NCBI GenBank assembly: GCA_048882965.1
Contig: JBHLRC010000001.1
Coordinates: 18,716-82,715 of the forward strand
Origin: Candidatus Thorarchaeota archaeon
GTDB lineage: Archaea; Asgardarchaeota; Thorarchaeia; Thorarchaeales; Thorarchaeaceae
Direction: 5' to 3'
Length of the DNA stretch: 64,000 nucleotides
The notes beneath the pieces were generated by a model. That model had not been told where the DNA came from, did not search any database, and saw only the letters and a program-made list of their open reading frames with translations. Positions 820 to 64,000 of this stretch are shown here, piece by piece (the first letter of the stretch is position 1; each line of letters opens with the position of its first letter). Both the position numbers and the translations under genes were made by a program.

Positions 820-1335
820 TTAGTGGAAGGAAGAAATAATACTCCTGGCAATCATCTCAAAGGCTGTATTAACATTCATGTCAAGGCGAACTGATGTTTC
901 GATATAATCAACCCCCATCTCTGAGGCAATCTTCTTACCTTCCTCAGTAGAAACGACTCGCTCCATAGCTAGATCTGTTTTATTCCCAACCAGAATTGCC
1001 TTATAATCATCGAGATTTCGATCAACCTCGTTCTTCCATTCAATGACTTCATTGAGTGACTCCCAGGAGGTCACATCAAACATGAAGACGACACCCTGAG
1101 CTCCCAAGTAATAATTTGCGCGGGTCCGTTCTAAAAAGTCCTGAGAGCCCAAGTCCCAAATCTGGAGGTTGACAGAGTCGTCATCAACATCCATCTTCTT
1201 GTAAGCAAAACCTACACCAAGCGTGGGTGAGTAGTGTTCCCTAAAAGATCCAGTAGAATATCTAATGATTATGCTGGTCTTTCCGACCGACGCTGCTCCA
1301 ACCGTGACAATTTTCAATAGATAGGATGGACTCAT
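820..1335 (-). CDS. Rab/Ras-like small GTPase (Asgard-type eukaryotic signature protein)
   Basis: G1 is GAASVGKT, G2 is the T in YSPTLGV, G4 is GNKTD, G5 is ETSV. G3 is the non-canonical WDLGSQD. The ORF track extends to a TTG at 1407. ATG at 1335 (MSPSYLLKIVTVG) gives a typical Rab N-terminus; ATG at 1359 is an alternative. Confidence 0.85.
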   Translation of the reverse strand: MSPSYLLKIVTVGAASVGKTSIIIRYSTGSFREHYSPTLGVGFAYKKMDVDDDSVNLQIWDLGSQDFLERTRANYYLGAQGVVFMFDVTSWESLNEVIEWKNEVDRNLDDYKAILVGNKTDLAMERVVSTEEGKKIASEMGVDYIETSVRLDMNVNTAFEMIARSIISSFH

Positions 1336-1408
1336 GAACTGACACCATATAGGTTTCATCAATTTTCTTAGATAACAGTTCTTCAGATGGAAGATAACAC
1401 TGTTCAAG

Positions 1409-2995
1409 CTAGATAATAATCTCTTTGGGAATCAATATCCCACGTTGAGTAGCAAGGACAAGAAGTGTAAGCTTCGCAGCTGGTCCGAGATTTGCATATT
1501 CCACCATAATTCGTTCGAAGGTTTCTACTTTGTCCCTACCCACCCACTCAGTAGGTAGAAGATCAATTAATGGAGTTCCAGAAGCAGATTTAATCTGCGT
1601 GATGCTCTCTGACTTGTATATAATATGTCCACGTGTTACTAGAATATAGGCTAACTCCTCTAGAGCACTGTTCCAAGTAATCTGGAGGTTACTAGTTTCG
1701 ATTGGTCCCACATGTGGTTTAGTGGGGGTACTCAATATCTCAAGCCAGTATGCAAACTCCTCAAATCCCCTTAGGTCAAAAGCGGAATATCGATTGATGA
1801 TTCTCTGTGAGATCACTGTTGTGAGGTTACCAATATAGAGATTCAATTTGGCAGGATTTAATGAATTAACAAACTGTGCGAGAAGCTTCATCCACTCCCC
1901 GAACAGCATCATGAGCCGTTTCTGGTTCAGTCCTTCAAGAACCTTGAAATCAAAGTCGACCATCCATTTACCATCCTTGAGTTGTAACTGACTCAGAGCT
2001 TCAGGTGTCCTGCTGTTCTTCATCACAAACTGTAATGCATTCGTTGTTTCATTGATGCTGTAAGTCCCCTCTGCAACACGGATTGCTAACTCCAAAGCCT
2101 CTTTCGCAAGGAGGATTCTCCTCTTCTCAGGAGTTAACGCTTCGATGACACCAACTTCGATAAGATAGTCCAAGGCTCGTAGAAGTTCACTTTCGTCATA
2201 TCGGGTACCAAGTACAGCTAGAATTTCGCGAACAGTCCTACGACCATCTATCATTCCAGCTAGATGTGGAATAACACCAGCCATATCGGGATGCAGTGTC
2301 TTCAGGTCTTTTGTTTCATTGGATGTGGCCTGCGCATATCTTACAAACTGAGTTCCTGTGGTCATGAAGTCGTTGAAATTGAACATGTTTCGAAAGCGGA
2401 TTACTCGATGTGCCCACAATTTAGACAAATCAAGTACGACCTCTCTACGTGAGAGACCACTAATTTCAATTATCTCTTTAACATTTCTTGACCCGTTGAT
2501 GTGGCCCATAAGATTACTGTGTACAGATTCAAGTGAATCTGGTGTAGTTGTGAAATAAGGCACCCACGTTTCACCAAGAAGTCTGAGTGAGAGCTTCTCC
2601 ATCACTCGTTCCCCAAATGCTTCAAGGTATACATCGACAAAAGACGTTTCAAAACTGAATTCAAAGGGATCAACAACTTCAAGCCAATCAAGTTCAAACT
2701 CAGCCAAGAGGGAGTCCAGTATGTTGACTGAATCTTGTGTAAGCCGTTGAACACTTACAGCGATCATATTGGTTTTGACACCATTGATTAGAGTAAATAA
2801 TCGAGCACCATAATCAACTTGGACCACCGGTGCTTTTTCATCGAAGACCTCTTTTGAGAACATGTCAATAGCTGCAAAGAAACTGGAAGCCATTACAGGG
2901 TCCATATTGAGTGCTTTAGGGTCTAGCTGCATGTAGAACCTCGGACTTCCACCCTTGTCAGTTATCAGAAGCGCTTCGATTGCATGACTAATCAA
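1409..2995 (-). CDS. Multidomain protein with an N-terminal Roadblock/LC7 (MglB-like) domain and two internal winged-helix-like repeats
   Basis: The N-terminus (AIEALLITDKGGSPRF...ASSFFAAIDMFSKEV...GARLFTLINGVKTNMIAVSV) fits the Roadblock/LC7 pattern. Two similar internal repeats are HINGSRNVKEIIEISGLSRREVVLDLSKLWAHRVI and MIDGRRTVREILAVLGTRYDESELLRALDYLIEVGVI. The start is TTG (no in-frame ATG before the conserved core). The gene ends directly upstream of the GTPase gene. Confidence 0.6.
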   Translation of the reverse strand: MISHAIEALLITDKGGSPRFYMQLDPKALNMDPVMASSFFAAIDMFSKEVFDEKAPVVQVDYGARLFTLINGVKTNMIAVSVQRLTQDSVNILDSLLAEFELDWLEVVDPFEFSFETSFVDVYLEAFGERVMEKLSLRLLGETWVPYFTTTPDSLESVHSNLMGHINGSRNVKEIIEISGLSRREVVLDLSKLWAHRVIRFRNMFNFNDFMTTGTQFVRYAQATSNETKDLKTLHPDMAGVIPHLAGMIDGRRTVREILAVLGTRYDESELLRALDYLIEVGVIEALTPEKRRILLAKEALELAIRVAEGTYSINETTNALQFVMKNSRTPEALSQLQLKDGKWMVDFDFKVLEGLNQKRLMMLFGEWMKLLAQFVNSLNPAKLNLYIGNLTTVISQRIINRYSAFDLRGFEEFAYWLEILSTPTKPHVGPIETSNLQITWNSALEELAYILVTRGHIIYKSESITQIKSASGTPLIDLLPTEWVGRDKVETFERIMVEYANLGPAAKLTLLVLATQRGILIPKEIII

Positions 2996-3140
2996 GTCAT
3001 ATCACCGGCGAATTATCAAGCTGTATAGTGAATATTAGCTTACCTTGGTTATAGAGTTACAATGATTTTTCATCTCAGAAAACCTTTACAGTAAAGTTGC
3101 GAATAATTCTAGATGGTTCGATTGATGGAGATTGTATAAA

Positions 3141-4253
3141 ATGAGAACCTGCCCTAAGTGTGGTAGAGCAAATCAACCTACTCGTAAGTATTGTATTCGG
3201 TGTGGAGGAAGTCTGTTATCAGTAGAAAAGAAACCTCAGGCAATTTCAGAGCCTGACGTAAAAGTAGAACCTCAGGCTTCAGAAACTCCTGCGCCGCCTC
3301 CTTCGACAAGTGAAGCAAGAGTCACTACAGATGATGAGTGGGTAAAGCCAAGTCAGGTTTCTAGAGACAGGGTTCGAAGCGCCGCAGGTACATTAAAACC
3401 AAAATCTGAAATGGAGAAAGCGATGGAAGCCTTTGCCAAAGCTGATGAAGTGGGTATCGAGGAGGAAGGTGAAGGTATTATAGAAACAAGAATGCTCAGA
3501 GCTAGTGAGGTTCAAGAGCTCATGGGTGAAGTTGAGTCCCAACCTCAGATGAATGCTGCACCAACTAGTACACCTACTCCTGCGGCACCACCACCTGCAA
3601 CCTCAACACCACCTCCCTCGGGACCACCTGGTGCTGCACCTACAAAACCAGTGGCACCGCCTGGCGCAACGCCTACCGCTCCTGCAACTCCTGCGACACC
3701 GCCATCTGGTCCCGTACAGGAAAAAGTGACCACACCAAAACCCAAACCTGTAGCACCCCCTCCAATGCCAGAAGCAAAGGCGGTGATGCCAAGACCAACA
3801 CCACCTCCCTCAAAACCAGCAGTCAAACAGTCCCCAGCGTCTATTCCCCAGATTGAATCAATCATATCATCTCTACCGGACCCAGCATACCGGCAGGACC
3901 CACAAATTATTGGAATTGTTAATGACCTAAAGAATCTGTATACCGAGCTGGCACAGTTCAACTCTGACTTAGATACAGTACGTACACGGCTTGAGTCTGA
4001 GGTGCAAGACTACTGGAATATTGCAGAAGTAAAGAGGATTCAATTTGAGAGCCTTGAGGAGCAACTGCGACTAGCCAAACACGAATGGAATGATGTAACA
4101 AAGGTCTATCAACAAGCCGAGAAAAGAAAGAAGAATGAGATATCATCTCGAGAGAAACGAATAAAGGATATTGAGAAACGAATCGAGAAGACAGAGAGTC
4201 AGATTGAGAAACGTGTGAAGGACTTGGATAAAGAGAAAGAAAAACAAGGTTAG
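3141..4253 (+). CDS. Zinc-ribbon protein with a long Pro/Thr/Ala-rich linker and a C-terminal coiled coil
   Basis: ATG at 3141 gives MRTCPKCGRANQPTRKYCIRCG (CxxC...CxxC zinc ribbon). About 150 aa follow of P/T/A-rich low complexity. The C-terminus is heptad-like and K/E-rich (EKRKKNEISSREKRIKDIEKRIEKTESQIEKRVKDLDKEKEK). Confidence 0.7.
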   Translation: MRTCPKCGRANQPTRKYCIRCGGSLLSVEKKPQAISEPDVKVEPQASETPAPPPSTSEARVTTDDEWVKPSQVSRDRVRSAAGTLKPKSEMEKAMEAFAKADEVGIEEEGEGIIETRMLRASEVQELMGEVESQPQMNAAPTSTPTPAAPPPATSTPPPSGPPGAAPTKPVAPPGATPTAPATPATPPSGPVQEKVTTPKPKPVAPPPMPEAKAVMPRPTPPPSKPAVKQSPASIPQIESIISSLPDPAYRQDPQIIGIVNDLKNLYTELAQFNSDLDTVRTRLESEVQDYWNIAEVKRIQFESLEEQLRLAKHEWNDVTKVYQQAEKRKKNEISSREKRIKDIEKRIEKTESQIEKRVKDLDKEKEKQG

Positions 4254-20977: not shown

Positions 20978-21095
20978 CGTACAGCGCTCCGATTCGACCC
21001 TATGGATTTCGAGAGATAATCCCTAATTAATTAGTCTGATTAGATGTAACACAATCTAAATCAGAGAGTCCGTATTTGAAGAACGTGTGACAAGA

Positions 21096-22361
21096 ATGAA
21101 ACCGGACCTTCTCCTGACCGATATTGGACAGATAGCGACTTTGGCTGGACATAGCGAAAACCCAAAGATTGGTTCACAGATGAATGACGTGTCTATAATC
21201 GAGAATGGCGCGATTGCTATCAAGGATGGTAAAATCATGGCCGTAGGACCAACAAAAGAGGTTTTGTCACAGGTCACTGAAGAACCGAAACTACCAGCAA
21301 TAGAGTTTCCAGGCATGTTAGCGACCCCCGGGTTCATAGATAGCCACACTCATCTTGCGTTCGGAGGCTCAAGAGAAAACGACTTTGCAATGAAGCTAGC
21401 GGGAAAGTCGTATCTGGAAATCTTAGAAGCAGGTGGCGGTATTCTCAATACTCTTAGGTCCACTAGAAAGGCAACTCCAGATGAGTTGGTCAGCAATGCA
21501 TTCTCATATGGTGAGGGAATGCTGAGCATGGGAACCACGACTATCGAGGCAAAAAGTGGATACGGGCTAGATACAGAGAATGAACTAAAATTACTCAGAG
21601 CGGTAGAAACTCTCAAGGAAAAGCTACCTATCAATCTAGTATCAACGTTCTTGGGAGCTCATGCTATACCTCCAGAGTATGAAGGGAGGACTGACGATTA
21701 TGTGGACCTTATCATAGACGAAATGATACCTATTGTATCTGAAAATGGACTTGCTGAGTTCTGTGATGTGTTTTGCGAGGAAGGTGTCTTTGATATTGAC
21801 CAATCGCGAAGAATCTTACTTGCTGCGAGAGAGAAAGGAATGAAACTCAAGGTCCATGCAGATGAAATAGTTCAGCTTGGAGGAGCATCTCTTGCTGCGG
21901 AGGTCGGAGCAGTTTCAGCAGATCACCTTTTGATGGCCTCAGATGTAGGACTGGAGGAAATGGTGAAAGCAGGCACGATTGCGACACTATTACCAGCAAC
22001 TGCATTCAGTCTAGACACAGAATATGCTGATGCTCGTAAGATGATTGAGATGGGACTACCTGTCGCCTTGGCGACTGATTTCAATCCCAATTGCGCAAAC
22101 GAGTCACTATTCTTCACTATTGCACTCTCATGTTACAAAATGAAGATGAAACCAAGAGAGGCTCTTTCTGCTGTCACCATAAATGCAGCCCACGCCTTGG
22201 AAAGAGGAGAAACCCATGGAAGCATCGAGGCTGGCAAAGTCGCGGACATTCTAATTCTCGATTGTCCAAATCCGGAGTACCTCACTTGGAGATTTGGTGC
22301 CAACCTAGTTCACACAGTTATCTCAAATGGGCAAGTTATTCATACAAAATTGGGACCTTAA
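21096..22361 (+). CDS. hutI: Imidazolonepropionase
   Basis: PGFIDSHTHLAFGGSR, GTTTIEAKSGYGL, KVHADE and ALATDFNP are amidohydrolase-fold HutI motifs. ATG at 21096. Confidence 0.9.
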   Translation: MKPDLLLTDIGQIATLAGHSENPKIGSQMNDVSIIENGAIAIKDGKIMAVGPTKEVLSQVTEEPKLPAIEFPGMLATPGFIDSHTHLAFGGSRENDFAMKLAGKSYLEILEAGGGILNTLRSTRKATPDELVSNAFSYGEGMLSMGTTTIEAKSGYGLDTENELKLLRAVETLKEKLPINLVSTFLGAHAIPPEYEGRTDDYVDLIIDEMIPIVSENGLAEFCDVFCEEGVFDIDQSRRILLAAREKGMKLKVHADEIVQLGGASLAAEVGAVSADHLLMASDVGLEEMVKAGTIATLLPATAFSLDTEYADARKMIEMGLPVALATDFNPNCANESLFFTIALSCYKMKMKPREALSAVTINAAHALERGETHGSIEAGKVADILILDCPNPEYLTWRFGANLVHTVISNGQVIHTKLGP

Positions 22362-23890
22362 TTCTCATAGAGTGATCCTGTTATAGACTCAACCGATCCG
22401 ACTATATCACCAGTGTGCATTAGATTTAGAATCTTAGAGATATCAGGGGACAGGGGACGGTCATCTTCCAATTTTGGAACTACACCCCTGATTGTTTTGT
22501 AAGCCTCCTGGATAGGTTCTGATGGCTTTAAAGGAGCAAGATAATCCAGACCTTGACAGGCACACATATACTCGATTGCAATAACATTTTGCGCATTTTC
22601 AAGAATGTTTGAAGCTTTTCTAGCAGCTATTGTACCCATACTTACATGATCCTCTTGATCCGCACTTGTGGGGATTGAGTCAACACTGGCGGGATGGGCA
22701 AAAATCTTGTTTTCCGAAACTAAGGCGGCAGCTGTATATTGTGCAATCATCATTCCAGACTCTAAACCACCCTCAGTGGTGAGGAACGCAGGCAATTCAC
22801 TCAGATGAGGATTGACTAGACGGTTGATTCGTCGTTCTGAGATGTTAGCGATTTCAGATATAGCAATTCCAAGAAAGTCCATTGCTAAAGCCACTGGTTG
22901 TCCATGAAAATTACCTCCAGAAATAACAACCCCATCATCACCAAACACGAGGGGATTATCAGTTGCAGAGTTTATCTCGGTTTCAAGAACACTATACACA
23001 TACCTTATTGCGTCCAAGGAGGCCCCCAAAACTTGGGGTATGCATCGAAGTGAATATGCATCTTGTATCTTTCCGCAGTCAGCATGAGACTGGTTTATCT
23101 CGCTATCAATGAGTATTTTCCTCTGCGCTGCTGCAACATCAACCTGTCCCTCATGTGGCCTAATCAAGTGTATTCGCTCATCAGAAGCTACTCGAGTTCC
23201 GCGGAGAGCTTCAAGACTCATGGAAGATGCGATAGTTGCATCATGGATCAAACGCAGTGCATCGAATGTTGCTAAGACACCTACAGAGCTCATAGGTTGA
23301 GTTCCATTGATTAACGCTACACCCTCTTTGGCTTGCAAAACAAGAGGTTTGATACCTGCCTTTTTTAGAGCTGCTTTGCCACTCATGACCTTACCAGATA
23401 CTTCAGCTTCTCCTTCACCAATTAGGACTAATGCCATATGTGCCAACGGAGCTAAATCACCACTCGATCCGACCGAGCCCTTCTGTGGAACGACAGGAGT
23501 GACGTCTTTGTTTAGTAAATCCAGTAGGGTTCCGATGACCTCAAGGCGAACACCAGAGTAGCCTTTTGCAAGCGCATTTGCTCGTAGAAGCATCATCCCC
23601 CGAACTATTTCTCGTGAGAAGGGTAGTCCAACACCCGCACTATGGCTGCGAAGTATATTGACCTGAAGTCGTTCCAAGTCATCTTTCTTGATGGAAACAT
23701 TGGCGAGATCCCCAAAGCCAGTATTGACACCATAGACAGCCCTACCTTCCTTAATTGCAGATTCCACTACCGCACGACTGCTTTTGATGCCAGAGATTGC
23801 GGATTCATGTAAAATGACAACTTCATTGTATCGTGCTACCTGCACTACATCTTCTAGAGTGAGACTCTCACCATCAATCATGACTGGCAT
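22358..23890 (-). CDS. hutH: Histidine ammonia-lyase
   Basis: YGVNTGFG, the MIO region GSVGSSGDLAPLAH, NGTQ, and QDAYSLRC...NFHGQP. ATG at 23890 (MPVMIDGESLTL) fits HAL N-termini better than the extended ORF. Confidence 0.9.
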   Translation of the reverse strand: MPVMIDGESLTLEDVVQVARYNEVVILHESAISGIKSSRAVVESAIKEGRAVYGVNTGFGDLANVSIKKDDLERLQVNILRSHSAGVGLPFSREIVRGMMLLRANALAKGYSGVRLEVIGTLLDLLNKDVTPVVPQKGSVGSSGDLAPLAHMALVLIGEGEAEVSGKVMSGKAALKKAGIKPLVLQAKEGVALINGTQPMSSVGVLATFDALRLIHDATIASSMSLEALRGTRVASDERIHLIRPHEGQVDVAAAQRKILIDSEINQSHADCGKIQDAYSLRCIPQVLGASLDAIRYVYSVLETEINSATDNPLVFGDDGVVISGGNFHGQPVALAMDFLGIAISEIANISERRINRLVNPHLSELPAFLTTEGGLESGMMIAQYTAAALVSENKIFAHPASVDSIPTSADQEDHVSMGTIAARKASNILENAQNVIAIEYMCACQGLDYLAPLKPSEPIQEAYKTIRGVVPKLEDDRPLSPDISKILNLMHTGDIVGSVESITGSLYEN

Positions 23891-24040
23891 TTTATCCACC
23901 AGAGTCTTTTCTTGACTACATCTACTATTCAGTAGTTGCAGCTGGGAGAGGGTCATGGATGCTCGCTTTAGTAGTTATCGTTGAACATGGGAGTCTAGAA
24001 TGTTTGCTCTGATGGAGATTAACCCTTAGCAAGTGTGGTA

Positions 24041-26062
24041 CTAAGAGTCCTTCAGAGCATCTTTGACCAGTTTTTCAACAAAGCCGGTTTCTGGAATATA
24101 TGGAAGTGAAATCTGACCCTTCTTTCCAAGTCGTTGGTTCCATTCTATCACAGTTTCAACTGCGTGCTCATTTCTCGCCCAAGCACGCCGTGCAACACCA
24201 CCCATCACATCCCAGTCAAGTGAGGATCGGATGATGTTGTCAACTCGCTCGCTACCATCCAAGACCAAACCAAATCCCCCATTGATTGCCTTTCCTGTTC
24301 CAACTCCCCCGCCATTGGAGAGAACACAGAGAGTCATTCCGCGGGCTATATTTCCAGCCCAACACTGGTGCGCCATGTCACTCATGACATTGCTAGCATC
24401 ACGAATATTCGAGGTCTCTCTGAAGGGCGAGTCTGTCCCGCCTGTGTCATGATGATCCCTTCCCAACATAATAGGACCGACCTTCTTCTCTCGGACCATC
24501 TTGTTGAAGGCAAGAGCGATGTCCACACGTCCTAGAGCATCAGCATAGAGAATACGAGCTTGAGAACCAACAACGAGGGAGTTTTTCTCAGCGTCCCTGA
24601 TCCAAGCGTGATTGTCCCTGTCCTGTCCCCGACGGTCCGGATTGATTCTTGACATGGCCATCTTGTCAGTGGCTGAAAGGTCTTCATGTTTTCCGCTAAG
24701 ACAGACCCATCTGAACGGACCATATCCATAATCAAAGCATATGGGACCCATTATGTCTTCAACGTAAGAGGGAAATATGAACCCATCAGAGGTGTCTGTC
24801 CCATTTTTTGCTATGCCCTTAACTCCCGCATCAAAGACTGCTTTCATGAAGCTATTTCCATAGTCCCAGAAATGTGTACCCTTCTTTGTCATAGCTTCTA
24901 TGAGTTCGAACTGCTTACGAAGGGATTGGTCAACCAGCTGGTTGAACCGTTCGCGGTCTGTTCTTAGTAACTCACGACCTTCCTCGAATGTAACACCTTG
25001 AGGTGTATATCCGCCATCATAAACAGCATGACAGGAGGTCTGGTCTGATGCAAGCTCAATCTTGATGTCGTTCTGAAGAGCGTAATTCCAGAGGTCTACA
25101 ACATTCCCGTAGTATCCTATAGATACTGGTTCTCCACTGGCACGGTGCTCATCCACCCAGCCAAATATCTCTTCAAGGTCCGAAGAGTGTTTTCTAAGCC
25201 AGCCCTGTTTGGTACGTGTATCTATACGACTTTTGTCGACCTCAGCAATAACACCGATACCTCCAGCAATCTCAACAGCTTTAGCCTGTGCTCCACTCAT
25301 CCCCCCGAGCCCTGATGTCAAGAACACCTTTCCACTCAAATCGCCATCATCAGGGATTCCAAGATATAGTCGCCCTGCGTTCAAGAGAGTGATGTAAGTC
25401 CCATGGACAATTCCTTGAGGACCAATATACATCCAGCCTCCTGCTGTCATCTGACCATAATTCGCTACACCCATGGCTGTAGCATGATGGAATCCCTCAG
25501 GATTGTCGAACATCCCCACCATGAGACCATTAGTTGTGATTGCTCGTGGCGCAGTTTTGTGTGATGGAAAAAGACCAACTGGATGGCCTGAACTGACAAC
25601 AAGTGTTTGCTCATCGGTCATGGCTTCGAGATATTTTTTGATAAGTTGATATTGCATCCAGTTCTGACAAACCTGACCCGATTCACCGTATGTGACAAGT
25701 TCGTAAGGATATAATGCCACATCAAAGTCCAGATTGTTATCAATCATGACTTGGATTGCTCGAGCTTCAAGAATTCCCCTGTACTCATCAACTGGTTTCG
25801 CCTTGATAGCACCTGGCGGGCGATATCGATAACCGTAGATTCGACCTCTTGTCATGAGTTCATTAAGGAATTCAGGTGCAAGAGTTTCGTGGAGACTCTC
25901 AGGCACATAACGTAACGCATTCTTGACTGCAATGACTGTATTTGTGGGGCTCAAATCATACCCCCTGTTAGGAGCCCGTCGATAGTGCAAATCAAAGACA
26001 GGTTCTGGAGGAAGGCCTTGTGACAATTTGATGGTCATCGCTTTAGAAATGTCAAAACGCAT
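24041..26062 (-). CDS. hutU: Urocanate hydratase, long (about 670 aa) form
   Basis: Urocanase motifs are present: GMSGAQ, GPFRWVCLSG, MLGRDHHD. At 673 aa it is clearly longer than the roughly 555-aa bacterial HutU as I recall it. Confidence 0.9.
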   Translation of the reverse strand: MRFDISKAMTIKLSQGLPPEPVFDLHYRRAPNRGYDLSPTNTVIAVKNALRYVPESLHETLAPEFLNELMTRGRIYGYRYRPPGAIKAKPVDEYRGILEARAIQVMIDNNLDFDVALYPYELVTYGESGQVCQNWMQYQLIKKYLEAMTDEQTLVVSSGHPVGLFPSHKTAPRAITTNGLMVGMFDNPEGFHHATAMGVANYGQMTAGGWMYIGPQGIVHGTYITLLNAGRLYLGIPDDGDLSGKVFLTSGLGGMSGAQAKAVEIAGGIGVIAEVDKSRIDTRTKQGWLRKHSSDLEEIFGWVDEHRASGEPVSIGYYGNVVDLWNYALQNDIKIELASDQTSCHAVYDGGYTPQGVTFEEGRELLRTDRERFNQLVDQSLRKQFELIEAMTKKGTHFWDYGNSFMKAVFDAGVKGIAKNGTDTSDGFIFPSYVEDIMGPICFDYGYGPFRWVCLSGKHEDLSATDKMAMSRINPDRRGQDRDNHAWIRDAEKNSLVVGSQARILYADALGRVDIALAFNKMVREKKVGPIMLGRDHHDTGGTDSPFRETSNIRDASNVMSDMAHQCWAGNIARGMTLCVLSNGGGVGTGKAINGGFGLVLDGSERVDNIIRSSLDWDVMGGVARRAWARNEHAVETVIEWNQRLGKKGQISLPYIPETGFVEKLVKDALKDS

Positions 26063-47320: not shown

Positions 47321-49102
47321 CTAGAGATTGCTCAAACCTAATTTCCTAAGTGCCTCAGCAGAAGGCCGGCCTGTTTTTCGGTCCCACTTTCGATATTCAT
47401 AATATTCGTCTAACTGTGAATCAACATCAGGTACGAAATCATCTGTGACACTCTCAGCGTGAGGGATCAGTAATGGTTTTGGTAATTTCTCATCCTCGGT
47501 TTTCAGCCCGCACTTAAGATTGAAGAGTCGTTTCATTGTGACAGCTCTGGCACCAATCTTCAGAATGTCTTCAAGTTTATAGGAGGACCCAATTGCCAGA
47601 TTTAATAGTTCAATGATTCTTTCGGGAGGAACAATGGCGAATTGACACATTATCACACAGTCGAAGAACGCTCTGAAATCCTGAAGTCTAGCTGCGGTCA
47701 TCCCTTTGCCTTCATTTTCCAATCGATCCCCTGCATTGATTCCTAGTTGACGGAACTCCTGTCCCATATCAACTGAATACATGTCACCCTCCATATGGGA
47801 TGCTCCTCGAGAAGCAATGGTATAGACTGTTGCCATTCCTGAGAAAGCACGGGGGTCATGATTTGGAATCTCCATACCCCTCACATGTAGCACAATGTCC
47901 TCAGCCGAATGTTTTCTAGCAACTGAAACAGCCCCCTCAGCCAAGATGTCACCCAATCCCTTTCTTGTTGCTATTGCATGGATTGTTTCAATGACTCCAT
48001 CAGGATCATCCCAAGTGAGCCCATAGTCTGCTTTTCCTATATCACAGAGATTCGTTGTAAATGCAATAGTGCTTCCACAGCTAATTGTATCCATCCCATA
48101 CTGGTTGCAGAGATGGTTCATGCGTGCTATCTTTTTGAGGTCAGAAATCAGTAAGTTCGAGCCAAATGAGGCAAGAGTTTGATATTCTGGACCTTCAATG
48201 CCAATCAGTTTATACTCAGGAATCGTGACCTTTCTTCCGCAGCCTATCGGACATGAGTAACATGCTGAACGCCCGGTCAATATCTCCTCCATGGATTTCG
48301 CATTAATCAGTTCAGAATCATCAAACTCAATCTCTTGGAAATACTTGATTGGCATGTCATTGAACATCATGGCGATATCAACATACATCGATGTTCCTTG
48401 GTCACTTAGCATAGACATCGCCTCACCAAGGATCTTTCTTGACTCATTCGCTAGTTTTTGAAACTCGTGAGGGCTATGAAGAACTGGTTTGGAATTACCT
48501 CCAACAACTATAGCTTTTAGCTTCTTGGAGCCCATTACAGCTCCAAGACCACATCGGGCAGAAACTCTCTCATTGGTTACAATGCTTGCGAACTTGACAA
48601 GATTCTCACCTGCAGGTCCTATACAGGCAACCTGAACATGACCATGTTCATTCTTCAATATTTCTTGAGTTGGTCCAGTCATCTCTCCCCACAATTCCAA
48701 GGCAGGGAGTAATGATGCACTTCCACTATCAATATGCAAGGTTACGGGACTCTCAGCTCTTCCCTTAATCAGAATTCCATCAAATCCTGAAAATTTTAGG
48801 AATGCCCCAAAATGGCCACCAACATGAGACTCGCCCCAAAGGTTTGTCAAAGGTGATTTTCCACATACAACATGACGACCAGTGCATGGAGCAAGTGTTC
48901 CAGTTAGAGGGCCCGTCATGAACAGGAGCATGTTCTCAGAACTAAGTGGATCAACACTATGGTCGAGATGTTGGTAAAGGAATCTTGATGCAAACCCACT
49001 TCCGCCAAGAAACTTAGTTGAAATGGTAGGAGGCGTTTCTAGTGTAGTAACCTTCCCAATCGATAAGTCAACAACCAGAAGTCGACCCATGTAGCCAGTC
49101 AT
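47321..49102 (-). CDS. aor: Tungsten-type aldehyde:ferredoxin oxidoreductase family protein
   Basis: N-terminal GRLLVVDLS.GKV, GLGAVMGSKKLKAIVV, C-x2-C-x3-C context (CYSCPIGCG), and about 590 aa in length. Confidence 0.85.
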   Translation of the reverse strand: MTGYMGRLLVVDLSIGKVTTLETPPTISTKFLGGSGFASRFLYQHLDHSVDPLSSENMLLFMTGPLTGTLAPCTGRHVVCGKSPLTNLWGESHVGGHFGAFLKFSGFDGILIKGRAESPVTLHIDSGSASLLPALELWGEMTGPTQEILKNEHGHVQVACIGPAGENLVKFASIVTNERVSARCGLGAVMGSKKLKAIVVGGNSKPVLHSPHEFQKLANESRKILGEAMSMLSDQGTSMYVDIAMMFNDMPIKYFQEIEFDDSELINAKSMEEILTGRSACYSCPIGCGRKVTIPEYKLIGIEGPEYQTLASFGSNLLISDLKKIARMNHLCNQYGMDTISCGSTIAFTTNLCDIGKADYGLTWDDPDGVIETIHAIATRKGLGDILAEGAVSVARKHSAEDIVLHVRGMEIPNHDPRAFSGMATVYTIASRGASHMEGDMYSVDMGQEFRQLGINAGDRLENEGKGMTAARLQDFRAFFDCVIMCQFAIVPPERIIELLNLAIGSSYKLEDILKIGARAVTMKRLFNLKCGLKTEDEKLPKPLLIPHAESVTDDFVPDVDSQLDEYYEYRKWDRKTGRPSAEALRKLGLSNL

Positions 49103-57081: not shown

Positions 57082-57229
57082 AAACCATTCTTACATTGCT
57101 CAAGATATAGTACTCTTTAGAACACGTGTTCCAAATAAAATAGTTAACGCTGTGAAGCCCCTGACAGAAAGATTATATCGTTCATCACGCTGGGGCTTCT
57201 GTAACTACAGTGCCTTGGAGAATACTCCC

Positions 57230-60200
57230 ATGGTCAGTGAGTCAGCAAAGAAACCCCAACAGAAGACAAAGCCAACAGATGTCTTAGTCATAGGAGGCGG
57301 TATGGCTGGCATTAATGCAGCTCTTGGTTTGGCCGACGGCGGACATATTGCACACATGATTGAGAAGACTGTGAATATTGGAGGGAACTATGTAGCAATC
57401 TACAAGATCTTTCCCGCGTTAGAATGCTCAGCCTGCGTTATGACTCCTCTCACCTCTTTTGTTGGTAAACATCGAAACATCAGGATACATCCTCTTGCAA
57501 CAGTTGAGAAGGTAACTGGAAAAGAGGGTGATTTCACAGTGACAATACGACAAAAGGCCAGGTACGTAAATCCAGACACGTGCACAGGCTGTCAGCTATG
57601 TATCAGGTCATGTCCTGTTGAGGTGCCTAACGAGTATGATTTTGGTTTGTCACTTAGAAAGGCAATTTACATGAATTTCCCGCAACAGATTCCACTTATC
57701 GCTACTATTGATCGGGACGCATGCATAGGTTGTGGAACCTGCGCCTCTGTCTGTCCGAATGACTGCATCATGTATGATGATGAAGACAAAGTCTATGAAT
57801 TGAATGTGGGGTCCATAATAGTTGCAACAGGGTTCGAGGAATACAAGCCTCTTGATTATGGTGAATATGGATATGGAGTATTTCCAAATGTTGTAACAAC
57901 TCTTGAGTATGATAGACAGACTCACCCGACTGGTCCGACAGATGCGCACATGGTACGACCGTCAGATGGCAAGGAACCCGAGCGAATAATGTTCGTGAAT
58001 TGTGTTGGCAGCAGGGATGTTAGGGAAAACATCAGTGGCTATAGCAAGCATTGCAACAGAGTATGTTGTTCATTCGGTTGCAAACTAGCTCAGGTCACGA
58101 GAATGCACTACCCTGAAGACCACTGTGAGATTATCTACACCTATATGGACATGAGAACAGCTGGAAAAGCTCTGGAAGAATTCCTGTGGGACACACAGAG
58201 AAATCAAGGTATCAAGTTCATACGAGGCAGGGTATCGGAGATTCAAGAAGACGCAGACACTCATGACTTGTTTGTGAAAATGGAGGATACTGAAACTGGG
58301 GAAATCATAGAATTGGATAAGATATCAATGGTTGTCCTCAATTCAAGCTTCAGACCTAGTCAAGGTTCAGAAGAACTCGCAAAGGTCCTCAAAATAGACC
58401 TTACTGAAGCAGGATGGTTTAAGGAGAAGCATCCTAATGTTGCCGCACTTGAAACCGACCGTCCAGGCATCTACATAGCAGGATGTGCGCACGGTCCTCG
58501 AGATGGAACAGATTCTGTCAATGAGGGGAAGGGGGCTGCAATGGCAGCTCATTCCATTTTACCAGTTCCAACTCCAGAGGCTCCACCTGAAGTTCCCCCA
58601 GCAGAAATCACTGAAGAACCACGTGTAGGCGTATTCATATGTCATTGCGGGGGAATAATAGGTAATGAGATATCCTCTCCCGGACTTGCAGAATGGGCGA
58701 AGGATTTACCAAATGTCGTATACAGCACAGACTACATTTTCATGTGCAGTGACCCAGGGCAGGCTCTTGTTACCCAAGCCATAAAGGACCATAAGTTAAA
58801 CCGAGTAGTTGTCGGATCCTGTTCACCGTTACAACATGAACAGACATTCAGAAGTGCTTTGGAAGCAGCAGGTCTCTCAGGATATTATCTAGTTGGTCCA
58901 GTCGGTCTCCGAGAACAACTAGCTCTTGTTCACACAAAAGTTCCACGTGAATTGCGTCAAGAAAAAGCACAGGACATGATTCGAAGTGCTGTTGCGAAGG
59001 CAATTAACAATGAGATTGTTCCATTAAAGAGGGTTAAGGTCACGCCTGTTTCCATGGTTGTTGGGGGAGGTGTGTCTGGTATGACTGCTGCTTTAGACAT
59101 TGCACGAAAGGGCTTTGATGTTATTTTAGTTGAGAAACAAAATCAGCTTGGCGGAAGGTTGAATGAACTTCATCGTTTGTTTCCAGAAATGGAGTCTGCA
59201 AAAGATATTGTCAGTGACTTAGTCGCTAAAGTAGAGAGGGAAAAGAGAATACAAGTACTATTTAATTCAAAGGTAGTCAAACGGGATGGGTCATATGGTA
59301 ATTATGATATTACAGTAGAGAATGTTGAAACCAAAAAACGTGACGTGCATCGTATCGGTTCAATGGTTATCGCAGTCGGCACAGATGTCTATGAGCCCAA
59401 GAAGGGTGAATATGGTTGGGAAGAGGTGCCAGAGGTTATCACTACCCTTGAACTTGAGAGAAAACTAAGGAATGGAGAGTTAAAGAAAGCTCCAAAGAAT
59501 CCTGTGTTCATTCATTGTGTTGGATCGAGACAAAATCCTGGAGAAGGCAATAGGTACTGCTCTAGGGTTTGTTGTTCTGCAGTGATAACGATGCAGAATG
59601 AGCTCAAGGAATTATTCCCGGATATCAAGATATTCTCTGCGTATAAGGAACATATCCGTCCATTTGCCAATGGAATGGAAGAAATGTGGAGAGAGGATAG
59701 GCAGAAGGGAGTAGCGTATCTCCGCTGGGTCCGTGAGAAACCAGTGACAGTTGAGAAAAATCCTGATGGTACCGGAGCAATTGTCACTGTCTATGACACA
59801 CTTTCTCAAGAAACTATCAAGATCAAATCTGAGATGGTAGTTTTAGCAGTAGGACTTGAGGCACCTCATGATGTCAATGAGCTAGTCAAGGCGATGGGAA
59901 TCAATCGAGGGCAAGATGGATTCCTATTAGAAATGCACATGAAATTCCGACCTGTGGAAACAACTGTTCCAGGTGTCTTTCTAGGTGTTACCTACGCAAA
60001 GAATGTGAGTGATTCAGTTAATCAGGCTCGTGGAGCTGCAAGTGAAGCTTCTATACCACTAAACCTAGGAACAGTAGAAATTGAACTGTTGACCGCAGAA
60101 GTGGACCAGGATCTCTGCGTGGGATGTGACCTCTGTCACTATTCAGACATCTGCCCATATGACGCAGTTTCAATGATTGAAGTGGAACCAGGAGTGAAGA

Positions 60201-60334
60201 AAAGCGTCACTGATGAGATGCGTTGTGAAGGATGTGGAGCATGCTGCGCAATCTGCCCGACAGGTGCAAGGGACCTCCGTTGGTGGCGTGAGAAGAGCTT
60301 CCTTGAACAGACTGAGGAAATGTTGAGGGAGTGA
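57230..60334 (+). CDS. hdrA: Tandem (duplicated) HdrA-like FAD/Fe-S flavoprotein
   Basis: The first module has DVLVIGGGMAGINAAL, two ferredoxin CxxCxxCxxxCP motifs, NCVGSRD, and the HdrA C-terminal Cys domain VGVFICHCGG...MCSD...VVGSCSP. The second module has VVGGGVSGMTAALDIARKG, FIHCVGSRQ..RYCSRVCC, and a terminal 2x[4Fe-4S] domain (CVGCDLC...CPYDA, CEGCGACCAICPTGA). ATG at 57230 is preferred to GTG at 57152. Confidence 0.85.
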   Translation: MVSESAKKPQQKTKPTDVLVIGGGMAGINAALGLADGGHIAHMIEKTVNIGGNYVAIYKIFPALECSACVMTPLTSFVGKHRNIRIHPLATVEKVTGKEGDFTVTIRQKARYVNPDTCTGCQLCIRSCPVEVPNEYDFGLSLRKAIYMNFPQQIPLIATIDRDACIGCGTCASVCPNDCIMYDDEDKVYELNVGSIIVATGFEEYKPLDYGEYGYGVFPNVVTTLEYDRQTHPTGPTDAHMVRPSDGKEPERIMFVNCVGSRDVRENISGYSKHCNRVCCSFGCKLAQVTRMHYPEDHCEIIYTYMDMRTAGKALEEFLWDTQRNQGIKFIRGRVSEIQEDADTHDLFVKMEDTETGEIIELDKISMVVLNSSFRPSQGSEELAKVLKIDLTEAGWFKEKHPNVAALETDRPGIYIAGCAHGPRDGTDSVNEGKGAAMAAHSILPVPTPEAPPEVPPAEITEEPRVGVFICHCGGIIGNEISSPGLAEWAKDLPNVVYSTDYIFMCSDPGQALVTQAIKDHKLNRVVVGSCSPLQHEQTFRSALEAAGLSGYYLVGPVGLREQLALVHTKVPRELRQEKAQDMIRSAVAKAINNEIVPLKRVKVTPVSMVVGGGVSGMTAALDIARKGFDVILVEKQNQLGGRLNELHRLFPEMESAKDIVSDLVAKVEREKRIQVLFNSKVVKRDGSYGNYDITVENVETKKRDVHRIGSMVIAVGTDVYEPKKGEYGWEEVPEVITTLELERKLRNGELKKAPKNPVFIHCVGSRQNPGEGNRYCSRVCCSAVITMQNELKELFPDIKIFSAYKEHIRPFANGMEEMWREDRQKGVAYLRWVREKPVTVEKNPDGTGAIVTVYDTLSQETIKIKSEMVVLAVGLEAPHDVNELVKAMGINRGQDGFLLEMHMKFRPVETTVPGVFLGVTYAKNVSDSVNQARGAASEASIPLNLGTVEIELLTAEVDQDLCVGCDLCHYSDICPYDAVSMIEVEPGVKKSVTDEMRCEGCGACCAICPTGARDLRWWREKSFLEQTEEMLRE

Positions 60335-62321: not shown

Positions 62322-64000
62322 TTAACGCCTCCTTGGTCTCAATGGACTTGGTCCAAGTTTGTCCGCGATGTCTGCGAACTTCCTAACCGTTTCAGCCCAG
62401 ATCGACCCTTCACTTGCACTAATGTGTGTGAACTGAAGACGCTCTGGTTCGAGTCCGGCTTTCTCAATGATTTTCTTTGCAATGGCAAATCTTCGTTCAA
62501 ATGAGATGTTACCATCAACATAGTGGCAGTCTCCAATATGACATCCAGAGATCCACACCATGTCTGCTCCGAGTCTGAATGCCTCCAAGATGTGCTGCAC
62601 ACTTATCCTACCGGTACACATCACTCTGATGTCCCTAACATTTGGCGGCTGTTGAAAACGGGACACACCAGCGCTGTCTGCCCCAGCATACGAACACCAG
62701 TTACAGAGAATTGTCAATATCCGTGACTCATTAGCAGGCATGTTTTCCAGAGCTGTTCGAATCTGAGAGATGATTTGGTCATCGGTGAAATGCTTCATGG
62801 TAATGGCACCAGCAGGGCAACCAGCGCCGCACTTTCCACAACCCTGACACAGAACAGGATTGGTCACCGCATAATCATGGCCCCCATCACCTGGAACCAC
62901 CTCGATAGCATTGTATGCACAGTTAATCTCACAGGTTCCGCACCCAACACATATTTCCGGATCCACAACGGACACGATTGCTTCAGCCTTACGGATTCCT
63001 CTGATGAGTGGAATAAGTGCCCTCGATGCAGCTGCCTGTCCTTCGTTGATTGATTCTCCAATACTCTTTGGTGCCGTAGCTGTGCCAGCCACAAAAACAC
63101 CATCAGTTTGAAAGTCAACAGGTCTGAGTTTCGGATGAGCCTCCATAAAGAAGCCAGAAAGGTTCAATGGAACCTTGAACAGCTCAGAGACCTCTTTGTT
63201 TGGTCTTGGTACCATGGCTGTTGCCAGTACAGTGTGGTCCACATCAAGTGTCAATTCAGCACCAAGGATTTGATCCATGACAGTGATGCTGAGTGCTTTG
63301 TCCTTACCCTTCTTGACCACTGGTGGCGAGTCACCATCAAACCGGATGAACACTACACCTTTCTTCCGAGCCTCTCGATACTTATCCTCTATGTCATAGA
63401 AGACTCGTAAGTCTCGGTAGAAGTGAAACACTCGTGAGTTGGGATACTTCTCAAGGAGTTCAAGGGTATGCTCCAAAGCCACCATGCAACAGATGCTAGA
63501 GCACCAAGTGCGGGACCCTTCGAGTGATGCATCCTCACGAGAACCTGCACAATGAATGACCGCAAATGTTTCACCATCTTCAAGTCCGTCTCCATTGGCA
63601 ATTCTCTTGCTGAACTCCACCTCAGTCATGACCTCGGGGAGTTTGTTAAGACCGTAGAGGCCCTTCTCTTCTAAGGCAACTGCTCCAGTGGCTACAATCA
63701 CAACACCGACTTTCAGCTCTTCCTTCTTCTTTCCAGTCTTGATGGTGACCTCGAACTCACCGATTGATCCCTTTGCTTCAACGACTTCAGATTTCAGCAT
63801 GAGTTTGATGTTCTCTTTCCCTGTGATTCTGGCTTCATAATCAGCTACGATTTCAGATGCGAGTCTGCTATCAGAATTAACCGTGGTGAGCTCATTGAGG
63901 AATCCGCCAACTCTGTCCTGTTTCTCGACAAGATAGATATTGAAGCCTTTCTTGGCAATAACATCAGCAGCCGCCATCCCAGCTACGCCAGCCCCAATGA
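62322..64000 (-). CDS. hdrA: Heterodisulfide reductase subunit A fused to a C-terminal MvhD/FlpD-like domain; the N-terminus lies outside the window
   Basis: The frame stays open past 63977 to the window edge (IGAGVAGMAAADVIAKKG is the FAD motif). Also present are HCAGSRE, WCSSICC, and ferredoxin motifs CVGCGTCEINC and CQGCGKCGAGCP. The MvhD-like part is ILCNWCSYAGAD...VMCTGR...ISGCHIGDCHY. Confidence 0.9.
   Translation of the reverse strand, partial: IGAGVAGMAAADVIAKKGFNIYLVEKQDRVGGFLNELTTVNSDSRLASEIVADYEARITGKENIKLMLKSEVVEAKGSIGEFEVTIKTGKKKEELKVGVVIVATGAVALEEKGLYGLNKLPEVMTEVEFSKRIANGDGLEDGETFAVIHCAGSREDASLEGSRTWCSSICCMVALEHTLELLEKYPNSRVFHFYRDLRVFYDIEDKYREARKKGVVFIRFDGDSPPVVKKGKDKALSITVMDQILGAELTLDVDHTVLATAMVPRPNKEVSELFKVPLNLSGFFMEAHPKLRPVDFQTDGVFVAGTATAPKSIGESINEGQAAASRALIPLIRGIRKAEAIVSVVDPEICVGCGTCEINCAYNAIEVVPGDGGHDYAVTNPVLCQGCGKCGAGCPAGAITMKHFTDDQIISQIRTALENMPANESRILTILCNWCSYAGADSAGVSRFQQPPNVRDIRVMCTGRISVQHILEAFRLGADMVWISGCHIGDCHYVDGNISFERRFAIAKKIIEKAGLEPERLQFTHISASEGSIWAETVRKFADIADKLGPSPLRPRRR

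Follow-up and report, generated by a model that had tools for sequence, protein, structure and literature searches.

In a stretch of 64,000 nucleotides from a Candidatus Thorarchaeota archaeon (assembly GCA_048882965.1, contig JBHLRC010000001.1), which as a whole is called the window here, two adjacent genes on the minus strand encode a 528-amino-acid (aa) protein related to NPRL2 and NPRL3 of the GATOR1 complex and a Rab-like small GTPase. The gene of the large protein (1409..2995(-)) opens with a TTG after GGTGAT, at the first possible codon past an in-frame TGA, and the N-terminus read from it agrees with those of the orthologues. The GTPase gene lies 3' of it. An open reading frame (ORF) of 195 aa can be read here from a TTG, at 820..1407(-); since the orthologues listed are most commonly 171 aa long and those read open with MSP.YL, we place the start at the ATG at 1335, which gives a coding sequence of 171 aa and a stop codon (820..1335(-)), with a Shine-Dalgarno-like GGTG (1343-1346) 9 nt before the ATG, and therefore a gap of 73 nt to the 528-aa ORF. 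A previous reading of this DNA from its letters, called the sequence-only reading below, had placed the two frames at exactly 820..1407(-) and 1409..2995(-), 0-73 nt apart depending on the start used, and it is the 73-nt spacing that the orthologues support.

The architecture of the 528-aa protein was explored with an AlphaFold2 (AF2) model based on 46 homologues (predicted local distance difference test, pLDDT, 76.8; predicted template modelling score, pTM, 0.66), to which secondary structure was assigned by DSSP. Residues ~1-135 (2591..2995(-)) form strands at 6-13, 18-23, 57-61, 66-71 and 75-81 and helices at 33-51, 87-104 and 119-134, so that the modelled topology is beta-beta-alpha-beta-beta-beta-alpha-alpha without an N-terminal helix. 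The sequence-only reading had seen a Roadblock/LC7 domain in the first ~95 residues. The family gives no sequence match to the Pfam models of Robl_LC7 or of longin domains, and the predicted topology assigns the domain to the longin branch, which belongs to the same superfamily as Roadblock/LC7 but is not Roadblock proper. A motif GG-x-P-[RK]-F at residues 15-20 marks this domain; its P18 and F20 are invariant and stand at the start of beta2.

The longin domain is followed by two winged helices, at residues ~143-215 (2351..2569(-), with INGSRNVKEII) and ~236-287 (2135..2290(-), with IDGRRTVREIL). They form an internal repeat, in which residues ~147-178 match ~236-268 with 41% identity (BLASTP E 7e-6), and both segments are modelled by AF2 as helix-helix-helix-beta(-beta) units. 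The two repeated winged-helix-like segments of the sequence-only reading are therefore real; it had further supposed that they could link the GTPase to another partner, whereas they are winged helices of the NPRL type and not a new partner-binding invention, as described below. A family-specific helical domain comes next (residues 288-421; 1733..2134(-); pLDDT 84-96), which carries the invariant motifs EKRRILLAKE (290-299) and DLRGFEE..WLE (407-419), the most conserved of the family. After a linker of low model confidence at residues 422-443, the protein ends in a small helical domain (residues 444-528; 1412..1666(-)), which is a separate ORF in a paralogue. Modelled alone, the C-terminal half (287-528) reaches a pLDDT of 83 and a pTM of 0.81, and finds no fold match in the PDB with Foldseek (best E 1.2).

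A comparison of the whole model with the PDB by Foldseek leads directly to GATOR1. The top 11 matches are all chains from entries of GATOR1 or of the SEA complex, with E from 4e-6 to 4e-4 over 348-505 columns, and include 9o5a_H, 9o5d_D, 8adl_S, 9h4q_T, 9v0j_A, 9o5a_C and 7t3a_C. Chain 8adl_S is named as yeast Npr2, and entries 9o5a, 9o5d and 9v0j contain the sequence of NPRL2; the chains of ~400-460 residues in 7t3a, 7t3b, 8fw5, 9o5a, 9o5d and 9v0j are presumably NPRL3. MglB, LAMTOR and Roadblock structures appear only at E ~1e-2 and cover only the first ~105 residues. The structure search that the sequence-only reading had suggested points to the NPRL2/NPRL3 type; the Roadblock assignment is not borne out, and residues 287-528 found no fold match in the PDB.

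Sequence profiles point in the same direction. With a profile of the 46-member family, human NPRL2 was the sole match below E 0.01 among the PDB sequences (E 0.0047). The alignment of this family to one of NPRL2 by hhalign gave an E of 2.4e-5 and a probability of 75% over 130 columns, the NPRL2 alignment being shallow, as the homologue search with human NPRL2 returned vertebrate sequences only. Residues 143-273 are paired with NPRL2 172-315, which comprises both winged helices: the first is aligned to NPRL2 172-251, with HINGSRNVKEI opposite YIDGFRHIQKI, and the second to NPRL2 ~288-315. The Pfam model HTH_NPRL3 gives a sub-threshold match in 12 of the 46 members, located at winged helix 1 in paralogues. 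The window protein itself does not match Pfam NPR2 (PF06218) or NPR3, and a single member of the 46 touches NPR2 (E 0.053). A profile search of the full library gave 137 representatives, and a Pfam scan of 10 distant matches among them found no NPR2 or NPR3 domain; these are longin-only relatives or fusions with V4R, with F420-hydrogenase-beta or within a large Ig-domain protein. Because the curated Pfam models are not reached, the 528-aa protein is to be regarded as a distant superfamily relative of NPRL2 and NPRL3, with a longin domain and tandem winged helices, and not as a member of the Pfam family.

Used as a single query against Pfam, NCBIfam and the PDB sequences, the 528-aa protein returns nothing, or sub-threshold PqqD matches only. 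We considered a PqqD/RRE identity of the winged helices and rejected it, since all of these matches are sub-threshold and NPRL2 itself has the same IDG-x-R subtype. When the C-terminal region was aligned by hhalign to NPRL2 300-380 no significant match was obtained (E 0.24-0.42). In these same non-significant alignments the motif IYG..I..I..ASG.PL.D, encoded at 1412-1666, is repeatedly set against human NPRL2 345-370, and this pairing may reflect what is left of NPRL2's final winged helix.

Such a large protein might be not a regulator of the GTPase but an effector or scaffold, which binds the GTP-bound form and, through its winged helices and conserved C-terminal domains, recruits other proteins, peptides or nucleic acid, the GTPase with a stiffened switch II then acting as a slow timer. 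The most conserved motifs of the family, EKRRILLAKE and DLRGFEE..WLE (with R292, R293 and R409), are indeed found outside the longin domain, and the C-terminal half has a confidently predicted fold without known relatives, its last domain being detachable or duplicated in some lineages. The weak similarity of the winged helices to the PqqD/RRE type would also fit an effector, but these matches are all sub-threshold and are explained by the IDG-x-R subtype shared with NPRL2. To our knowledge, moreover, all the well-studied longin or roadblock partners that are encoded beside small GTPases (MglB, GATOR1, FLCN) act on the nucleotide cycle. We consider an effector function quite unlikely.

All homologues of the 528-aa protein carry the annotation 'hypothetical'; their sources are Thorarchaeota and a small number of other Asgard metagenome-assembled genomes (MAGs), the closest named relative being a protein of Thorarchaeota AB_25 with 90-91% identity. 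Asgard genomes were searched for GATOR1 components by Liu et al. (bioRxiv 10.1101/2020.10.19.343400; Nature 2021), and according to the searchable text of the preprint a 'NPRL2-like' family is present in most Thor MAGs; 'NPRL2-like longin domain' has since become a standard label among the asCOGs, and is also used in PMC9834061. Distribution and architecture match, and the window protein almost certainly belongs to this published family. The searchable text of Liu et al., outside which Figure 5c and the supplements lie, mentions no adjacent GTPase, no DxGSQ motif, no A/B duplication and no extra C-terminal domains. As far as that text goes, therefore, the obligate pairing with a Rab-like GTPase carrying a D-x-G-S-Q motif, the duplication of the whole module and the C-terminal domain of unknown fold are apparently unreported.

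The second gene encodes, as judged from its matches, a G domain of the Ras superfamily that stands closest to the Rabs. Its best Pfam match is Ras (PF00071, E 5e-46), followed by Arf (6e-14) and Gtr1_RagA (8e-4), the last of which scores 19.3 bits and stays under the 22-bit Pfam cut-off. Its best 60 matches among the PDB sequences are all Rabs (Rab35, Rab1, Rab3, Rab8, Rab10, Ypt1 and Sec4), with E from 1e-35 to 1e-29, and the orthologues are labelled 'Rab family GTPase' at NCBI. The P-loop or G1 motif GAASVGKT occupies residues 13-20 (1276..1299(-)), with G.{4}GK[ST] in 118 of 120 orthologues, and switch I reads YSPTLG at residues 35-40 (1216..1233(-)), a string kept in 119 of the 120. G4 is NKTD (residues 118-121; 973..984(-)) and G5 is ETSV (residues 146-149; 889..900(-)), with SV[RK] instead of SAK. 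The C-terminus ends in ...SIISSFH and has no prenylatable cysteine.

The peculiarity of this GTPase lies in G3, which reads DLGSQ at residues 61-65 (1141..1155(-)), within the string WDLGSQD (residues 60-66; 1138-1158). The HMMER alignment to Rab35 has no gaps through switch II and sets DLGSQD opposite DTAGQE; in Ras numbering A59 is replaced by G and the hinge glycine G60 by S, and the catalytic Gln61 is kept. The sequence-only reading had listed G1, G4 and G5 (as ETS) as canonical and described the glycine of G3 as displaced by one residue, and both descriptions are accurate. It had also proposed following DLGSQ across relatives. Among 120 orthologues of at least 60% identity, D[LM]GSQ occurs in 116 and DLGAQ in 3, so that the motif is no chance or sequencing artefact. 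It is found in both of the GTPase clades described below (A and B), and over the two together conservation reaches 95% or more in switch I (RY.TG.FRE.Y.PTLG..F) as well as in switch II (QIWD.GSQ.FL). In one B-type locus (L054, MAG SRP214966_co7_247) the GTPase, nested in the B clade of the tree, reads DLGGQ, which may be a reversion or may hint at an Arf/Rag-like D-x-G-G-Q ancestor. We found no mention of a D-x-G-S-Q type motif (DLGSQ or DMGSQ) in GTPases in the searchable literature. Substitution of the hinge glycine, as in Ras G60A and G-alpha-s G226A, blocks the GTP-driven movement of switch II, and a fixed serine with a neighbouring glycine suggests an altered switch mechanism. The sequence-only reading had proposed that hydrolysis may depend on the partner because of the altered G3, an idea on which the strict conservation of the motif is the one result that bears.

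The two genes belong together. A scan of one genome per species yielded 79 loci in 56 MAGs. Those followed by 700 nt of sequence or more were taken as informative, and the GTPase was scored by D-x-G-[SG]-Q on the same strand. It was present downstream in 65 of 71 such loci, and in 57 of the 60 with at least 2.2 kb, mostly within ~100-180 nt as measured to G1. Among the loci without it, L021 is interrupted by a run of N, L077 and L079 reach contig ends in a sub-clade with a membrane-protein insertion, and L022, L051 and L059 belong to a third paralogue subgroup. When every ORF of these loci was clustered all against all, no genes but those of the large protein and the GTPase proved common across the set, other neighbours being limited to sub-clades. 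The pair persists where the large protein has fallen to 37-40% identity, and it is kept in L049, L068, L073 and L078 despite genes inserted between the partners.

The large protein exists as two deep paralogues, each linked to its own GTPase. Paralogue A, to which the window copy belongs, is fused and ~526-535 aa long; paralogue B has ~415-425 aa and is accompanied by a separate ORF of ~108-125 aa equivalent to residues 444-528. A neighbour-joining tree of 66 GTPases is split exactly by the type of neighbour, A or B, which indicates that the two-gene unit was duplicated whole and that its partners co-diverged. A and B modules occur together in 15 of the 56 MAGs, a lower bound as the MAGs are incomplete; the window holds the A module only, and a tblastn search of it with an orthologue found no second closely related GTPase. 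The sequence-only reading had called the two genes a dedicated GTPase-regulator pair and expected their order to recur in related genomes. The pairing and its synteny are upheld by the linkage, by the absence of other common genes and by the split of the tree, but the large protein is not the enlarged MglB or Roadblock regulator then imagined.

Gene order might also be inherited within one archaeal class and have no function, the G3 variant being a neutral lineage marker. The loci do all belong to a single lineage at the level of a class (Thorarchaeia and close relatives), so that shared ancestry inflates the synteny counts. Yet the rest of the neighbourhood has turned over around a pair that outlasts such divergence of the large protein and survives insertions, that was duplicated as a unit with co-divergence of its partners, and in which strong purifying selection acts on the G3 motif and on both switches. 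We regard this explanation as extremely unlikely; the split of the GTPase tree and the neighbourhood clustering already largely refute it.

Several variants of the locus were observed. The separate last-domain ORF of the B form is seen at 6275-6601 of L004 and in L060, L068, L073 and L077-L079, and in the full library many free-standing proteins of ~100-115 aa are matched by profile positions 438-525; the split C-terminal form may be the ancestral one, from which the 528-aa form arose by fusion. In L003 (6724-7521; a contig shared with L049, MAG RBin_111) the NPRL2-like gene and the GTPase are separated by a 265-aa ORF that duplicates, as an independent unit, the C-terminal half of the large protein (SRRILMVREAFE ... 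GFEEFAFWLE ... YANLSPAACLTVIVLGRQ), and a second, unrelated GTPase with a D-x-G-G-Q G3 motif (IDLGGQ) lies upstream. In a B sub-clade (L068 5650-7026, L073 5702-6964, L078 5226-6512) the GTPase is separated from the NPRL2-like genes by the gene of a protein of ~420-460 aa. This protein opens with a signal or transmembrane segment, carries a transmembrane segment at its C-terminus and contains a conserved RDYWPT.GW motif; it could be a membrane partner of the module.

The 73-nt spacer of the window (1336..1408(-)) contains, in addition to the GGTG at 1343-1346, a conserved element GAAGAACTGTTATCTAAGA with its core at 1370-1379, ~35-45 nt 5' of the GTPase ATG. In an alignment of the spacers of 14 loci the core AAC.GTTATCT is kept in L023, L035 and L039, although the large protein is only 53-59% identical there. 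The element could be an internal archaeal promoter of the TATA/BRE type that provides a separate transcript for the GTPase.

On these grounds we propose that the NPRL2/NPRL3-like protein and its cognate Rab-like GTPase constitute a two-gene signalling module in which the state of the GTPase is set by docking of the longin domain, an explanation that we consider somewhat probable as a whole. That the two proteins interact directly is likely. The longin domain would dock onto the invariant switch I/II face of the GTPase, acting as a homodimer or, by analogy with NPRL2-NPRL3, as a heterodimer with the B paralogue. Docking would set the nucleotide state, the most probable effect, if GATOR1 and MglB are a guide, being the stimulation of hydrolysis, and the winged helices and C-terminal domains would couple the complex to other partners. 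An activity as GTPase-activating protein (GAP) is favoured because of the specific homology to a GAP-type longin family and because P18 is invariant at a telling position; we take it to be a real possibility that falls a little short of probable. According to a paper in Traffic (2025), a 'GP motif' before beta2 is found only in GAP-type longins and is absent from non-GAP longins. P18, in a string that reads G-G-x-P, stands at the corresponding place at the start of beta2, which is a hint towards the GAP-type longins. If the protein is a GAP, its mechanism may resemble that of MglB, in which the catalytic machinery of the GTPase itself is put in order, because the longin domain has no invariant arginine.

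A number of observations weigh against this proposal. The longin domain cannot be aligned to that of NPRL2 by sequence (E 0.23-0.88 in local and global hhalign), so that no equivalent of NPRL2 Arg78 can be assigned, and among the 46 members no arginine is invariant within longin residues 1-135. The nearest candidates are R65, which is Arg in 35 members and His in 11, and R19, which is Arg or Lys in clade A only. By strand order R65 sits on the beta3-beta4 loop, and the beta4-beta5 loop, on which we presume NPRL2 Arg78 to lie from inspection of the NPRL2 sequence by eye, has no conserved basic residue. An equivalence of 'DYGAR' (R65) with NPRL2 'KYSR78' was considered and dropped, being a resemblance only, with His in 11 of 46 members and a different hairpin. 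The longin motif reads G-x-P (G-G-x-P) and not GP. No DEPDC5-like gene is conserved in the locus neighbourhoods, to which this comparison was confined. A third paralogue subgroup (L022, L051, L059) has no adjacent GTPase. The GTPase itself is Rab-like and not a Rag, with a sub-threshold score for Gtr1_RagA and without a C-terminal roadblock domain, and longin platforms that act on Rabs in eukaryotes are typically guanine nucleotide exchange factors (GEFs), as PMC3747258 summarises.

The members of that third subgroup are 58-60% identical and have PKF at residues 18-20. A convergent cysteine-desulfurase-like gene lies downstream of them, and their MAGs also hold a GTPase-linked copy (L041, L037, L042).

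The last of these objections leads to an opposite direction of regulation, in which the NPRL2-like protein is a GEF for the Rab-like GTPase, in the manner of Mon1-Ccz1, TRAPP, DENN and BLOC-3, and the serine in place of glycine in switch II is tuned for GEF-dependent release. Ras G60A binds its GEF tightly, and given this behaviour a substitution at the G60 position could plausibly alter the coupling to a GEF; the Rab-like character of the GTPase by every sequence measure and the longin domain without an invariant arginine finger are in keeping with such a role, as is the habit of longin platforms on Rabs. The specific homology, however, is to the GAP-type longins of NPRL2 and NPRL3 and not to Mon1, TRAPP or DENN, and the conserved proline stands at a position where non-GAP longins reportedly lack the GP motif. 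We judge a GEF to be unlikely, though a serious rival, and retain the longin-docked module, with stimulation of hydrolysis as its favoured effect, as the preferred explanation.

An extension of this proposal can be formulated, in which the module is a Thorarchaeota forerunner of the GATOR1-Rag logic. The two co-duplicated modules would form a heterodimeric regulator of two GTPases, foreshadowing the action of NPRL2-NPRL3 on RagA-RagC; regulation would be independent of an arginine finger and matched to a unique switch II, the D-x-G-S-Q motif with its hinge glycine shifted by one residue, and the C-terminal domain would provide a sensor input. We consider this extension decidedly unlikely.

The remainder of the window contributes little to the module. 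The NPRL2-like gene is flanked by a divergent gene at 3132-4253(+), whose 373-aa product begins with a zinc ribbon, continues with a long low-complexity stretch rich in Pro, Thr and Ala and ends in a coiled coil rich in Lys and Glu; it is conserved upstream in 13 closely related loci only and hence lies outside the core module. Ordinary metabolic genes are found at 21087-26062, 47321-49102, 57152-60334 and 62322-63977, and comprise a histidine-utilisation cluster (an amidohydrolase/HutI-like protein, an aromatic amino acid lyase/HutH-like protein and urocanase), an aldehyde:ferredoxin oxidoreductase, a 1060-aa HdrA-like flavoprotein with Fe-S domains and an MvhD-domain fusion. Scans of the window for tRNA genes and Rfam families gave no matches.

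GATOR1, folliculin and C9orf72-SMCR8 are longin GAPs central to eukaryotic nutrient signalling and disease. The module described here is small, is encoded as an operon and lends itself to expression in E. coli, and it supplies an NPRL2-like protein together with an evident candidate for its substrate, so that what the ancestor of GATOR1 regulated, and how, becomes directly testable. Its main value is that it offers, in archaea, a tractable model of how GATOR1-type GAPs arose and how they work. The serine fixed at the G60 position amounts in addition to a natural experiment on the hinge that DxxG provides in Ras-superfamily proteins. Novelty is limited in that pairs of longin or roadblock and GTPase genes are a recognised theme in Asgard archaea and the NPRL2-like family was reported in Thorarchaeota in 2020/21.

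Among known systems the closest is the Asgard 'NPRL2-like' family itself, which in the searchable text on it has the same architecture of a longin domain and an NPRL2-type C-terminal region. GATOR1, or SEACIT in yeast, comes next: its NPRL2-NPRL3 pair, a GAP for RagA/Gtr1, likewise has an N-terminal longin domain followed by IDG-x-R winged helices, a conserved proline stands at the GP-motif position in the Thorarchaeota protein, there in the form G-G-x-P, and the two paralogues of each genome there (NPRL2 and NPRL3) recall the coexistence of A and B here. In contrast to GATOR1, the Thorarchaeota protein has no invariant arginine in its longin domain to stand for the Arg78 finger and no DEPDC5 partner in the neighbourhoods, it carries ~240 extra C-terminal residues without a fold match in the PDB, and it forms an operon-like pair with a 171-aa Rab-like GTPase that lacks the roadblock domain of the Rags. 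FLCN-FNIP and C9orf72-SMCR8, which the same Traffic (2025) paper groups with NPRL2 as GAP-type longins, marked by an arginine finger and by a GP motif ahead of beta2, join the longin domain to a DENN domain, which the window protein lacks, and neither complex is among the Foldseek matches.

MglA-MglB offers the bacterial parallel of a prokaryotic small GTPase encoded beside a regulator of the Roadblock/longin superfamily. MglB is a GAP that does not supply an arginine finger, and this finger-less action would be a possible mechanistic analogy for a protein with no conserved arginine. The regulator of the window differs from MglB in its longin topology without an N-terminal helix, in the lack of a Robl_LC7 match and in being four times larger, and the GTPase differs from MglA in its Rab-like character and in having no intrinsic arginine beside the switch I threonine (S-P-T). 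The GTPase resembles the eukaryotic Rabs (Rab35, Rab1, Rab8) over its whole G domain, with E ~1e-35 and ~40% identity, and shares with them a Rab-like switch I and RabF-like segments (LGVGF, LQIW, YYLGA), while it has DLGSQD and not DTAGQE, and SV[RK] and not SAK. The crystallised Thor-Rab (7EZB) has no prenylation cysteine (PMC10933270), and the same is true of the window GTPase, which is a different paralogue, as 7EZB is not among its best 60 PDB matches.

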